Positions 9,653 to 60,820 of a stretch of DNA of 64,000 nt are shown piece after piece (positions within the stretch are counted from its first letter, which is position 1; every line of letters begins with the position of its first letter). This DNA is from a virus. Taxonomy: Duplodnaviria; Heunggongvirae; Uroviricota; Caudoviricetes. Below the pieces are notes generated by a model that saw only the letters and a program-made list of their open reading frames with translations, was not told the DNA's origin and searched no databases. The position numbers and the translations under genes are program-made. The stretch covers positions 1 through 64,000 of IMG/VR virus record IMGVR_UViG_2609459856_000007; one strand, given 5' to 3'.

Positions 9653-10037
9653 AGAACGTGAAGTCAGAGACGGCGTTCTGTGCTTCCGTCGTGTGGCTGA
9701 ACGTGGCATGGAGCCAAAAAATACGAATTCTCCCGAGTGGTGGGCGTGGCGCTGGTCCGGACATTTCGGCCTTTGCGAAGATGAGAATGAAATTGCCAGC
9801 GGCAATAGTGCATATGGTGCTCTGAACCTGGCTTTCCATATCGGATTCAAACATGTAGCCCTGGTGGGCGTTGACGCTACGCAAGAACCACGAGTTCACT
9901 CCGGCGGCACGCCAAAAAATCTAAGTCACCTACCTTTGTTATTCCAGTCTGCGCGTGAACAGATTGACGTTGTTTCATGCGGGAAAATGGGAGGTATTCC
10001 GCAGATGACTCTTAAAGAATGGCTGAAGAATACATGA
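9627..10037 (+). CDS. hypothetical protein
   Basis: 136-aa ORF; could be a remnant. Confidence 0.3.
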
Positions 10038-10330
10038 TGGCACCCACAATTTATCACCGTATCGACGGTACCAAATACAGGAATGTCTGGGTTGTTGGTG
10101 ATCTGCATGGTTGCTACACCAGACTGATGTCCGAACTCCATCGTGTGGATTTTGACCCGGCGCAGGATTTACTGATATCGGTCGGCGACCTTATCGATCG
10201 CGGTACTGAAAATGTCGAATGTCTGGAACTATTGCAGATGCCCTGGTTCAGGGCAGTGATGGGGAACCATGAGCGGCTGATGATTGATGCGTTAAGTCCA
10301 GATGGCAACGTGAATAAACAAATTGGGTGA
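10019..10330 (+). pseudogene. lambda-type Ser/Thr protein phosphatase, N-terminal half only (homology ends about 10315)
   Basis: Metallophosphatase motifs GDLHG, GDLIDRG, GNHE; alignment with lambda PPase as recalled ends at ...GNVN, followed by 4 unrelated codons and a stop. Confidence 0.8.
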
Positions 10331-10433
10331 AGACAAAGGTATCGGTGAAGTTGTCGGCGTTGGCCGTCAGTGGACTGGTCTGAATACCGAGCTGTACACC
10401 TCTCTTTAAGTCATCTGAAATGACTCTGAGGTG

Positions 10434-10481
10434 TCTGTTAAACCTGTGGCGATTCAGTCTATTAAACCTGTAGCGATTCAC
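10434..10481. repeat. tandem 24-bp direct repeat (2 copies) upstream of hsdM
   Basis: TCTGTTAAACCTGTGGCGATTCAG / TCTATTAAACCTGTAGCGATTCAC; preceded by hairpin AGTCAT-CTGAA-ATGACT (about 10408-10426). Confidence 0.6.
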
Positions 10482-10641
10482 TTTATGGTGTCATAAACTT
10501 AAATCTAGCGCCGGGTAGAACAAGTTAATCGAACGATGTAGCGGCCATTTAGGCGTTACAGAAAGAACAGAATTTTAAATTTATAGTGAAGCCGTTGCAG
10601 CAACTTTGTGGGGTGCAACCAACACTGAACAGGAAAAGAAA

Positions 10642-57538: not shown

Positions 57539-59085
57539 AAGACAAGCCAGAGGGCAAATTACCAGAACTTAAATCATCTGCCAGAAAGCCGTCGGAGAGC
57601 AAAGACGAGTCCGAGGAAACGCCAGAATCAGGTGACGAGCCGTCTCATGGTGACTCTGCATCTAAGCCTGCCAAAGGCGAAGGCGATGACAAGGAAGAAC
57701 GAGAAGATGATGCATCAGAAGAGGAAGATTCTGGGGATTCCGATTTGCCTGATTCGTTAGATAAGGACTTACCTACACACGTTAAAGATATTAGTGATAC
57801 AGAAAGTAAATATACAGAAGCAGGCCACGAAGAGTCAGGAGACACCCCAGAATCCGATGCTATCGGCATGAAATCAAGTGACTCTGACACCGATGGTGAT
57901 GACGGTGAGGACTCCGATACTGATCGTGGGGAAACTGAAGAAGACGTCGAAGGCAAAAAAAATAAAGATGGTGCGGAAGTGCCCAAAGACAGTGAGTCTG
58001 GCTTTGTTCCTGCGCCGGATGAAATGACTCTGGAGGAGGCGCTAAAGGCGCTCGACGAGATGGAAGACGGAATCGGTGAAATGACCGAAGACGCACTGTC
58101 GGCCACCATCAGCAAAGAGCTTATGAGCGTCTCACCTTCTGATTATCGGCCATACGATCGATCATACGACTTTATCGGGTTGATTGATGGAGCCGAAGAG
58201 CATGTGAAGCGCACCAGAAAGACGTTCGGTGCAATACCAATGCACTCACCAGTCGACCGCTACCGTATGGTGCCAGAAGGCAGAAAACTCTTTGAACTGA
58301 AAATCGAAAAACATCTGTCTGCAGGCGTTTCTTCGACGCTGGCCAAAGACCTGGAGCGGGCCATCGCCAGCCGCAACCGAGTTCAGTTTATACCTGGTCA
58401 GAGGCGTGGGCGGATACATGGCGCGAGCCTGTATCGTCTGGCAATGAACGACGACCGAGTGTTCCGCAAGAAGGAAGACCATAGAGCGGTGAACGCGTGT
58501 GTCCAGCAGGTCATCGACTTGTCCGGCTCAATGGATGGCGTGAAGATTCAACTGGCCCTAGCCAGTGCCTATACCATTGCGGATGCTTTAGATCGTATCA
58601 ATGTCCCCAACATCATCACCGGCTTTACCACGTTCGGTAGCCCAGATTATGAAACCAGGTCGAAGCGCGGGTTTACACGCTTCGAGGCGCTCATGCTGCC
58701 CATTATCAAAAACTGGAATGAGAAAGCAAACTCTCCAGAGATCCGTGCTCGCATGGGATGCGTATGTGAGACGTTCCCCCTGCTCAATAACGTCGATGGT
58801 GAGAGTGTCGCGCAACTGGCTACCCTGTTTGCAGGGCGAATGGAGGACAAAAAGATCATGCTGGTTATGAGTGATGGGGAGCCATGTGCTACAGGTAGTG
58901 GATTCCATCAGCATTTACGAACCGTCACCAAAGAAATTGAGACCTTGAGCGACATCGAACTGATGGCTATCGGCATTCTGACCGACGAACCACGGCGTTA
59001 CTACAAAAATTACGCACTGGTTAACAGTGTTGAAGAGTTAGGGCCGTCAGTCGTCACTGAGTTATCTCGTATCATTCTTGGGTAA
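57535..59085 (+). CDS. vWA-domain protein with long acidic N-terminal region (CobT-like)
   Basis: MIDAS-type motif VIDLSGSMDG; about 170 aa of D/E/S-rich low complexity at the N-terminus. Confidence 0.65.
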   Translation: MKDKPEGKLPELKSSARKPSESKDESEETPESGDEPSHGDSASKPAKGEGDDKEEREDDASEEEDSGDSDLPDSLDKDLPTHVKDISDTESKYTEAGHEESGDTPESDAIGMKSSDSDTDGDDGEDSDTDRGETEEDVEGKKNKDGAEVPKDSESGFVPAPDEMTLEEALKALDEMEDGIGEMTEDALSATISKELMSVSPSDYRPYDRSYDFIGLIDGAEEHVKRTRKTFGAIPMHSPVDRYRMVPEGRKLFELKIEKHLSAGVSSTLAKDLERAIASRNRVQFIPGQRRGRIHGASLYRLAMNDDRVFRKKEDHRAVNACVQQVIDLSGSMDGVKIQLALASAYTIADALDRINVPNIITGFTTFGSPDYETRSKRGFTRFEALMLPIIKNWNEKANSPEIRARMGCVCETFPLLNNVDGESVAQLATLFAGRMEDKKIMLVMSDGEPCATGSGFHQHLRTVTKEIETLSDIELMAIGILTDEPRRYYKNYALVNSVEELGPSVVTELSRIILG

Positions 59086-59180
59086 TAGCTTTACCCTTAA
59101 AAATAAGTAACTGCTTACTATACAGCATAATATATTTCTATAAGATATACCCCACAAACGACAAACAGTAAGGAAAAAAC

Positions 59181-60416
59181 ATGACCGCTACTGCACTACA
59201 GCAAGAAGAACATTTGCCGGAAGCCATCGTCTGCAAGTGGTGTGGCAAATCCTTTCATTACCTGAAATCCCATATCTCTATGGGCCGTTGCGAGAATATT
59301 CCTGAGTCTGCGAAGGGTCTGGACGTGGACGAAGTGGTGAAGATGTACACCTCTGCGTTTCCAGATGAACCAACGATCTCTCGCACGGCACTGGCCAAAC
59401 TCAATGAGAAGCGTGCCGAAAAAAATTCATGCGAAGGAAAGGTAGCGGAGATTAGCGCACATCCGGGCTACGCAGGAACGGTCGAATACAAGACCGAACT
59501 GGTGGCCGCGCACGAGCTGCTTGGCGTAACGATCAAAGAGCTGGGAACGTCACGCGGAAAGCCACTACAGGTGACAGTCAACGTCAACACGCCCTATCCG
59601 GAGTTCGTACCGGAAGCGAAGAAAAACTATGTGTATGGCGACTTCGACCTGATCAAAGACATCTTTATGATGCTGGAAATCGGAATCCCGGGTTATCTCT
59701 GGGGCCATGCAGGAACCGGTAAATCTTCTCTTCCTACGCAGCTATGTGCCCTGCTAAATCGACCACTGATCCGCGCCCAGCATACGGCATCTATGGAGGA
59801 AGCGCACGTTACAGGCCAGATCCTCGCTCGCGATGGTTCCACCTATTTCGAACCGGGTTTACTAGCGCTGGCGATGAAAAATGGTTGGGTTTACCTCGCT
59901 GATGAATATGACTTCGCGTTCCCGCAGATTCTGGGTGTGTATCAGCCAGTTCTTGAAGGAGAGCCGCTGATCATCAAAGAGGCAACTGCGGACTGGCGCC
60001 GCATCACCCCGCATAAACGCTTTGCCTTCATTGGCACTGGCAACACTAACGGCTCTGGCGACGAAACAGGTCTCTATCAAGGCACAAACATCCAGAACGC
60101 AGCGAACTTCTCGCGTTTTGGCATTGTTTCAAACGTGAAGTACATGAGTACGAAGGCAGAAGTCAACATGCTGGCTGAAGCAGGCGTCATCCGCGAATAC
60201 GCCGAGAAGATGGTGAAGTTCGCGAATCTTATCCGTGAAGGTTATGAAAAGCATCAGATTAGCCAGCCAATCGGGCCTCGTGAGCTGCTGCTGTCCGCCA
60301 AAATCGGAATGATGCGCGGTGATTTCTCTGCCGGCATCGAAAAGTCGTTTATCAATAAACTTCCATCCACGTCTGCACAGGCAGCGCGTGAAGTGGTTCA
60401 GAAGATCTTTGGTTAA
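59181..60416 (+). CDS. AAA+ ATPase (MoxR/CobS-like) with N-terminal Cys/His-rich segment
   Basis: Walker [10 protein letters not shown], Walker B YLADEYD; 411 aa. Confidence 0.7.
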
Positions 60417-60418
60417 TC

Positions 60419-60820
60419 GTGCGTAACTGGCTAATGAATGGCGGACAATGGTTCTTCATGCTGGACACTGATCAGGAAATATTAGCCTGGGCGCTGGTGG
60501 AGCTGGTAAAGCGTCTGCCCTATATCATTGAGTTGAACACCGGGCAAGAAACTATCGTTATAGCCCATGCCGACTATCCGGATAATGAATACCAATTCGG
60601 TAAGGAGGTGCCGCTTTTCAACGTTGTCTGGGCGCGCGAGCGTATCAGTGATTCGATGGATGATATTGGTGGCGAAATTTCGGGCGCAGATCGTTTTATC
60701 TTTGGTCACACTCCGGTGAAAAGCCCGAAGACATTCTGGAATCAGCAGTATATCGACACTGGTGCCGTATTTTGCGGAAACCTGACATTGATGAAAGTGA
60801 AAGGTGATGGTGCAGCATGA
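60419..60820 (+). pseudogene. lambda-type Ser/Thr protein phosphatase, C-terminal half only (homology resumes about 60424)
   Basis: [11 protein letters not shown]...IAHADYPD...FGHTP...[14 protein letters not shown] aligns with the C-terminal half of lambda PPase as recalled; no ribosome-binding site; starts 8 bp after the AAA+ gene stop. Confidence 0.8.

Follow-up and report, generated by a model that had tools for sequence, protein, structure and literature searches.

A P1 ppp gene split by 50 kb of SSU5-like DNA: a hybrid of two phage-plasmid families with joints at short TA-containing microhomologies

The window analysed here, a stretch of 64,000 nucleotides recorded as IMGVR_UViG_2609459856_000007, is identical to positions 1-64000 of JNMN01000021.1, a 92,435-bp NCBI contig of an Escherichia coli draft assembly from 2014 (GCA_000700365.1), and covers 64 of the 92 kb of that contig. 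It carries ppp, the P1 gene for a phosphatase of the lambda Ser/Thr type, not as a single open reading frame (ORF) but in two pieces: the gene is interrupted at codon 96 by 50,106 bp of DNA resembling the phage-plasmids SSU5 and pHCM2, and P1-like arms lie on either side. In what follows, PL and PR denote the left and right P1/SSU5 junctions, and J1 to J6 the deletion joints inside the insert (coordinates in Table 1). The plasmid pMTY1887_untypable_1 (NZ_CP128965.1, locus L001) served as intact ppp and P1-like reference, P1-side losses being called against it by local blast. For SSU5-like DNA, coordinates were mapped by local alignment on the annotated 113.7-kb plasmid NZ_CP115313.1, and two free, reduced SSU5-like plasmids, CP057716.1 (69.9 kb) and pYLPI6a (NZ_CP074043.1), were compared.

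The upstream ORF (10019-10330) has a Pfam Metallophos match (E = 5.9e-13) and follows the intact P1-like ppp up to GATGGCAACGTGAATAA (...DGNVN), after which it reads KQIG and a stop codon from SSU5 DNA. The downstream fragment matches the intact gene without a difference from TAACTGGCTAATG (NWLMNGG) onwards; the GTG at 60419 that opens its ORF is a fortuitous start, and public gene calls begin the fragment at the ATG at 60434 or later. When 10034-10317 and 60427-60820 are joined, the resulting 678 nt show no mismatch (0/678) to the ppp of pMTY1887, and the reconstituted product of 225 residues aligns over its full length with the lambda Ser/Thr phosphatase 1G5B (E = 1.3e-94, residues 6-224). 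The split gene is the P1 ppp, annotated as Ppp, pphA or NinI-like in P1, P7, RCS47 and SJ46. Its reconstituted protein shares the full-length alignment and the metallophosphoesterase motifs with the lambda phosphatase and P1 Ppp; unlike theirs, the gene in the window is split. Judged from its sequence, ppp is here a disrupted gene, neither fragment of which would make a complete enzyme. Neither half has a single substitution, which points to a split that is recent in evolutionary terms.

A sequence-only reading of this DNA had described two co-directional halves of one phosphatase gene, the first losing homology after GNVN and the second supplying exactly the remainder from NWLMNGG, with a TAA microhomology at the breakpoints and some 50.1 kb of inserted or recombined DNA in between. 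Both fragments are indeed on the plus strand, the switch in the first falls at 10315-10317, and apart from the start codon of the second ORF the description agrees with what we find. The two comparisons that it proposed, aligning the halves with each other's continuation and setting them against relatives with an intact gene, give the mismatch-free reconstitution reported above, which rules out the option it had named as a refutation, namely that the fragments are independent paralogous remnants.

At both ends, homology changes inside a TAA trinucleotide, from P1-like outside to SSU5/pHCM2-like inside (megablast). The insert lies between these direct TAA copies, and P1 has neither lost nor gained a base. 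On the SSU5 side, PL falls within a gene for an SPFH-domain protein, of which the last 29 codons are kept, and PR lies 8 bp past the stop codon of the AAA_5 (CobS-like) gene; TAA already flanks both insert ends in the donor plasmids. In every free SSU5-like plasmid examined, the two junction points are 9.95 kb apart, and the 9.95 kb between them, which are absent from the window, hold dnaE, genes for a DNA-binding protein and a 5'-3' exonuclease, a LAGLIDADG-containing gene and the 5' part of the SPFH gene. Given this spacing, the insert cannot stem from one crossover with an entire SSU5 circle.

Neither PL nor PR displays an insertion sequence (IS), inverted repeats, an att-like site or an extended core, and the ends of the insert are not inverted repeats of each other (in register, 6 of 40 bases agree, which is the chance level). 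The shared core is 3 bp only, shorter than the 6-8 bp or more expected of a tyrosine recombinase, and the half-sites with a 2-bp core expected of a serine recombinase are missing; likewise, a transposase with end inverted repeats and a target duplication absent from the donor, as expected of a transposon or IS insertion, was not found. With no end repeats, no IS, only a 3-bp core and an integrase gene 4 kb from the nearest junction, neither transposition nor site-specific integration finds support. Pseudo-lox (Cre), Xer/dif-like and cix-like sites at the ppp TA were considered and rejected, as their likeness to the known sequences, judged by eye, was at the chance level and the position of the crossover did not fit. 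The right junction is not a virion DNA end of SSU5-type phages either, no phage record ending there. All joints share 2-8 bp, in keeping with microhomology-mediated end joining or template switching, for which short shared sequence, no further homology and no inserted element are expected. Enzymes that might be responsible are those of RecBCD/LigA end joining or the PrimPol IEE, and the element itself encodes an ATP-dependent ligase.

The junctions recur in independently assembled contigs of about ten other sequencing samples. The 98-residue product specific to the left junction (MMAPT...NVNKQIG) was found in seven contigs, including Logan contigs of ERR3329071, SRR1186779 and SRR18468218 and the NCBI assembly GCA_963589635.1, and the exact right junction in GCA_053275535.1, SRR1186779, SRR25057515, SRR18468218, ERR10686898 and SRR6060207. 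Neither junction was present in any complete PLSDB plasmid or complete RefSeq E. coli genome, PL was in no INPHARED phage record, and the exact junction strings had no matches in IMG/VR, GTDB genomes or JGI metagenomes. In the related locus L006 the DUF4268 gene is intact and the P1 DNA is 1.2 kb longer than in the window; because junction carriers differ from the window elsewhere, the fusion is inherited by a diversifying plasmid lineage, which circulates in several E. coli isolates.

Two sets of observations were made on such contigs. Loci L020 (1480-1522) and L024 (1-37) carry a Tn1721-like inverted repeat (GGGGGAACCGCAGAATTCGG...) at window position 49052, beside an MCP-type gene, and in L023 (6020-6057) a mer operon with an inverted repeat of Tn21 type lies at 53885; the hybrid plasmid is thus collecting typical resistance transposons. 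Separately, many metagenome contigs with the C-terminal part of ppp start within 3 nt of AATGAATGG, 8-10 nt beyond the junction (window 60432-60434; L011 and L014-L019), and L012 (2300-2340) has a 4-bp deletion, ACGT, and L013 (1986-2030) an N-gap at GGCAACGTGAATAA. These starts are probably in part a selection effect of the look-up with the exact 128-residue product; a common polymorphism of a Leu codon may account for another part, and ppp could be fragile at this spot.

Against NZ_CP115313.1, the insert resolves into 12 collinear blocks with 96-99% nucleotide identity, separated by clean deletions; the internal deletions number at least six (Table 1). The SSU5-type collinear backbone is recognizable from hsdMSR, a ParB-like pair, portal, capsid, ligase, integrase and a CobT/CobS-like pair. 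The SSU5 replicon (IncFIB repA of pHCM2 type with dnaE, primase and helicase) is not: repA (reference 1-1056), dnaE (reference 18157-21675) and the DnaB-like helicase gene are absent, and the primase gene is truncated. J1 occurs in no PLSDB record, J2 and J3 in none of the best matches listed, and J1, J3 and J4 recur in Logan contigs of SRR1186779. From the genes in the segment, the sequence-only reading had gone on to suggest a cointegrate of two elements. Two phage-plasmids have indeed been joined; however, the window does not hold two complete replicons, as only that of P1 is left and the SSU5 partner is represented by about 50 of its ~107-114 kb, roughly half an element, with repA deleted and the 9.95 kb missing. 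The product is better described as a decayed hybrid.

Table 1. Features of the 64,000-nt window, with the deletion joints and what was lost at each
Feature	Position	Strand	Remarks
P1-like left arm	1..10317		megablast to P1-like plasmids and phages
P1-side deletion joint	2325..2337		~2.8 kb lost (reference 15939/18756, pMTY1887); crossover at TA; common to L006
parB	4081-5046	-	Pfam ParB on the same gene in L006/L007
parA	5043-6254	-	Pfam CbiA on the same gene in L006/L007
repA	6648-7508	-	Pfam Rep3_N on the same gene in L006/L007
rdgC stump	near 9455-9652		65 codons
P1-side deletion joint in rdgC	9633..9654		~15 kb lost (reference 27934/43082); crossover at TA
pmgP remnant	left arm
N-terminal ppp fragment	10034..10330	+	95 authentic residues; GDLHG, GDLIDRG and GNHE motifs
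Left junction PL	10315..10317		TAA common to P1 ppp and SSU5-like SPFH-domain gene
SSU5/pHCM2-like insert	10318..60423		collinear with free ~106-120 kb E. coli phage-plasmids; multiple deletions
hsdM	10642-13065	+	type I restriction-modification (system 10642..18551)
hsdS	13072-14346	+	type I restriction-modification
DUF4268 gene, split	14356-14697, 14776-15519	+	between hsdS and hsdR
hsdR	15534-18551	+	type I restriction-modification
IS3-family transposase remnant (rve domain)	18566..19252	+	carried by free SSU5-like plasmids as well; site of breaks in short-read contigs
J1	19650..19651		TA; ~24-26 kb lost, including SSU5-type repA and nucleotide-metabolism genes
J2	33435..33436		TA; 2.1 kb lost: small terminase, most of large terminase
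Portal	33729-35303	+
DUF6651 protein	35326-36222	+
Major capsid protein	36249-37124	+
Truncated Ig-like gene	37199-37525		fused at J3 to 3' part of tail-tip gene
J3	37519..37520		TA; ~15-16 kb of tail genes lost
J6	42354..42356		GTA; 1.63 kb lost relative to pYLPI6a
ParA-like ATPase	44073-44741	+	SSU5-type partition pair; CbiA/ParA Pfam matches
Small partner of ParA-like ATPase	44741-45100	+
J4	46263..46268 (listed at 46265)		GAA against three references, GAATAC against one; 2.76 kb lost: DnaB-like helicase, part of primase
ATP-dependent DNA ligase	50149..51471	+	PF01068
tRNA-Asn (GTT)	53041..53115	+
Tyrosine recombinase (Phage_integrase)	55371..56474	+	4 kb from nearest junction
J5	57532..57535		GATA; 580 bp lost; common to all lineage members seen
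CobT_C protein	57535-59085	+	516 residues; ATG made by J5
AAA_5 (CobS/MoxR-like) ATPase	59181..60416	+	last SSU5 gene
Right junction PR	60424..60426		TAA common to SSU5 intergenic DNA (TCGTGCG-TAA) and P1 ppp
P1-like right arm	60424..64000		pmgQ-like 60817-61518; 420-residue gene 61820-63082
C-terminal ppp fragment	60425..60820 (ORF 60419-60820)	+	NWLMNGG... to stop codon; without upstream ppp start

The arms are of P1 type both by their repA-parA-parB module and by the P1 gene order around ppp (pmgP-ppp-pmgQ ... humD-phd-doc-lpa), the source contig carrying on beyond the window with humD, phd/doc, pdcB and lpa. They too have lost DNA, about 17 kb in total. The larger loss, which starts in rdgC, takes out dmt, ban/dnaB and tail genes. 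In L006, 14 kb are missing from rdgC codon 65 to a point upstream of pmgP (again dmt, ban/dnaB and tail genes); both deletions begin at the same TA nucleotide, and the two are nested, that of the window being 1.2 kb larger. Within the window, the rest of the molecule being out of sight, we found neither a complete set of P1 morphogenesis and replication genes nor a head-compatible genome size. By gene content, the hybrid keeps the repA-parAB replicon of P1 but does not amount to a complete P1 phage, and the 50 kb of extra DNA would take it beyond the packaging tolerance of P1 as given by the authors of tyPPing (10.1101/2025.08.29.673033). That P1-like phage-plasmids turn into plasmids through gene loss and exchange is a published idea (Pfeifer and Rocha 2024, PMC10879196), with which the window agrees.

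A common feature of the joints is the dinucleotide TA. We counted the clean deletion and fusion joints of the window lineage and of the two free reduced SSU5-like plasmids, and took the expectation from random joints simulated in the same DNA, where TA occurs in 3% of 2-bp and 7% of 3-bp microhomologies. TA is present in 17 of the 19 joints, where chance would give 1.28 (P about 1.6e-19); when the unconfirmed joint and the joints sharing a TA are left out, 13 of 15 still have it (P about 2e-14). In the window, the shared bases are TAA at PL and PR, TA at J1, J2 and J3, GATA at J5 and GTA at J6; J4 departs from this, with GAA in the comparison with three references and GAATAC in that with one. 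On the P1 side they are TA and TA in the window and TTATCC in L006; the joints of CP057716.1 have TAC, ATA, TTA, TAT, TA and one TGA, and those of pYLPI6a TA and TAGCCGGA. TA is lacking from that TGA, from a CCACCA deletion in NZ_CP115313.1 and from the AA joint of an inversion in pYLPI6a. Apart from TA itself, the 13 parental TA sites share no motif, nor do they have a hairpin in common. Some breakpoints were used again: in the free plasmid CP057716.1, an 8.4-kb deletion has the SSU5 TA of PR as one of its endpoints, and the rdgC TA was used twice (window and L006). As for controls made of P1 only, NZ_CP027223.1 is an incomplete linear record and the only large deletion of p95JB1A retains IS1203 at its joint. 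The pattern points to a TA-biased cut-and-join process behind the joints.

In pYLPI6a (NZ_CP074043.1, 13394-14406; L033), 1,013 bp within the LAGLIDADG-containing gene are inverted; the AA mentioned above is the microhomology at the joints of this inversion.

We consider it quite probable that a P1-like phage-plasmid took about half of an SSU5/pHCM2-like phage-plasmid into the non-essential ppp gene by microhomology-guided illegitimate joining, and that reductive decay followed. P1 was opened at one TA(A) without loss of a base, and the SSU5-like DNA was joined through two different TA(A) sites, 9.95 kb apart in the free plasmids, with loss of dnaE and its neighbours. The fusion itself would be an illegitimate, microhomology-guided break-and-join or a template switch: either a linear SSU5 fragment was caught at a break in ppp, or replication switched template out of P1 and back. 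Because two-step routes need a second event exactly on the first joint, this was probably one concerted event. Later IS-free deletions removed the SSU5 replicon, terminase, tail and replication genes as well as the ~17 kb of P1 phage genes. With the replicon of P1 kept alongside two partition systems, toxin-antitoxin pairs and the type I restriction-modification system, the hybrid became in effect a plain, stably inherited plasmid, which then spread and gained the Tn1721-like and Tn21-like transposons.

Several points weigh against this proposal. The single concerted event is argued for by parsimony alone. SRR1186779 shares 99.98% identity with the window and may stem from one and the same isolate, in which case J1, J3, J4 and J6 were only re-assembled from the same reads. 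J2 is without independent support: the Logan contigs of SRR1186779 stop at 33417, 18 bp short of the joint, and resume at 33449, 12 bp past it, and the window has C where the SSU5-like reference has A at exactly 33418 and 33448, the positions flanking this joint, a pattern that suggests either a mixed population, with the terminase region deleted in some molecules and present in others, or a weak assembly join. With 64 of 92 kb, the window cannot show circularity, full size or a second SSU5 segment elsewhere. To our knowledge, a TA bias is no property of microhomology-mediated joining in E. coli, so that the label given to the mechanism is incomplete. Finally, the reuse of fixed endpoints by nested deletions (the rdgC TA, and the TA of PR in CP057716.1) is the classic pattern of IS-adjacent deletions.

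This last pattern leads to an alternative that we regard as unlikely, though worth weighing: fusion and deletions were mediated by an IS at these sites, for example IS1203/IS629 from the IS3 family or a type that duplicates TA, such as IS630 or IS30, which was later removed, for instance with the aid of the IS-excision enhancer IEE, so that nothing but the short target duplication stayed behind. In its favour, the P1-like plasmid p95JB1A has IS1203 at a deletion that starts just after rdgC, in the same P1 region; free SSU5-like plasmids hold copies of IS1203 and of the IS3 family, and the insert itself has an rve remnant; and IEE is a PrimPol with microhomology-mediated end joining (MMEJ) activity that removes IS3-family elements and makes deletions (PMC9943667; 10.1101/2023.06.07.543989). 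However, IS sequence is kept at none of the ~19 joints, the target duplications of the IS3 family are 3-4 bp of any sequence rather than TA (an AAG duplication was observed), and the gene lists of the insert contain no IS630-family gene; many insertions would be needed, each of them cleanly excised. The IS629/IS1203 and IEE system, which also yields microhomology-mediated deletions in mobile DNA of E. coli, comes without a reported TA preference, and in p95JB1A, where the deletion affects the same rdgC-to-tail region of P1, the IS remains at the joint.

It is much less probable still that the insert is a discrete 50-kb mobile element which integrated or transposed into ppp with a 3-bp TAA target duplication. 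The direct TAA flanks, the intact target and the encoded tyrosine recombinase would suit such an element, but its ends are ordinary internal positions of SSU5-like DNA, adjoined by TAA already in the donor, lacking inverted repeats and 9.95 kb apart in every free relative; the integrase gene lies 4 kb inside the insert, a 3-bp core is too short for strand exchange by a tyrosine recombinase, and no circular form with an attP-like joint was seen. A chimera or scaffolding artefact joining contigs of two co-resident plasmids, which the sequence-only reading had held open, is hardly credible in spite of the draft status of the source and of J2, which no independent assembly reproduces and which two odd base differences flank, since both junctions and J5 stand in de novo contigs of several other samples and in two other NCBI assemblies, a 3-bp overlap is insufficient for assemblers to join contigs, and the junctions are exactly reciprocal within ppp; for PL and PR, an assembly artefact is refuted.

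The question arises as to why TA is so often used. We suggest, tentatively and with some doubt, that SSU5-like phage-plasmids or their E. coli hosts possess a TA-specific break-and-rejoin activity, which would have driven the joining to P1 as well as the stepwise, IS-free loss of phage genes by which phage-plasmids become plasmids. Such an activity would act as a 2-nt staggered cut followed by ligation, or as a TA-anchored template switch; the nearest analogy is the precise, TA-bounded excision by Tc1/mariner and PiggyMac-type enzymes. Speculative candidates are a nuclease leaving 2-nt TA ends that are resealed by the ATP-dependent ligase of the element, a 255-residue GIY-YIG-like ORF, a TA-duplicating IS since lost, and error-prone MMEJ of the IEE type. 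A full-text literature search returned no paper linking phage-plasmids with microhomology, and the TA signature may be new.

Hybrid and decayed phage-plasmids are a kind already known, of which the window is a further example. The P1-derived plasmids and defective phage-plasmids described previously (PMC10879196) likewise keep replicon and partition genes, lose phage genes and act as plasmids; unlike in those cases, the loss seen here goes together with 50 kb from a second phage-plasmid family and with IS-free TA joints. Among the 'too long / low confidence' cases of tyPPing are co-integrates or hybrids of phage-plasmids, whose lytic cycle and packaging are expected to be impaired (Ilchenko et al., 10.1101/2025.08.29.673033); that preprint names a category of phage-plasmid fusions without the anatomy of their junctions, and the window is such a fusion, resolved at its junctions. 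The plasmid pYY76-1-1 (NZ_CP040928.1), typed IncFIB+IncY, also combines an SSU5-like backbone with foreign DNA and was considered as a possible P1-SSU5 fusion; it turned out to be a resistance insertion bounded by IS26, which is at its junctions and not at those of the window. Closer in mechanism is pM3362MDR of Actinobacillus pleuropneumoniae, where two plasmids were fused seamlessly by illegitimate recombination at TA, with a gene split and a segment of a parent lost (Li et al. 2018, PMC6206304). It differs in that the plasmids are small, the host belongs to another bacterial family (Pasteurellaceae), and a single event is reported, with no general TA pattern claimed.

The window offers a case, at base resolution, in which two phage-plasmid families were apparently fused without an IS and then decayed into an ordinary plasmid, a route from virus to plasmid that has been proposed from surveys of gene content and rarely dissected at the junctions. 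Should the TA rule hold more widely, a specific molecular process would stand behind this reductive evolution, and a simple sequence signature would be at hand for spotting such events in assemblies; a TA-specific activity, if true, would add to bacteria a recombination signature not described so far.

The sequence-only reading had credited the segment with its own partition locus, recombinase, tRNA, restriction-modification system and capsid genes, and each was found, as the ParA-like pair, the integrase, tRNA-Asn, hsdMSR and the portal and capsid genes. Also retained are two ParB_N proteins, a GNAT/DUF1778 toxin-antitoxin pair, a tail fibre gene and PhoH. Joint J5 creates an ATG (GATA/TGAAAG), at which the gene calls of all lineage members start a CobT_C protein that lacks its first ~225 residues; the downstream AAA_5 partner is intact. 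In the region gone from the window through J1, both free reduced plasmids carry a gene for a 319-residue 'restriction endonuclease' (CP057716.1, 56453-57412, L032 6453-7412; NZ_CP074043.1, 79088-80047, L034 29088-30047), and two full-size plasmids have a Rha-family regulator in its place, which with four plasmids is a hint only. The DUF4268 gene is broken into ORFs of 113 and 247 residues in the window and in SRR1186779 and is intact (387 residues) in ERR3329071 and in free SSU5-like plasmids. Downstream of hsdR, the Logan contig SRR1186779_147 ends at window position 19156, inside the rve remnant, its other end being at 1230. Contigs from two short-read samples are interrupted at this one position, which implies further copies of that IS in the host genome.

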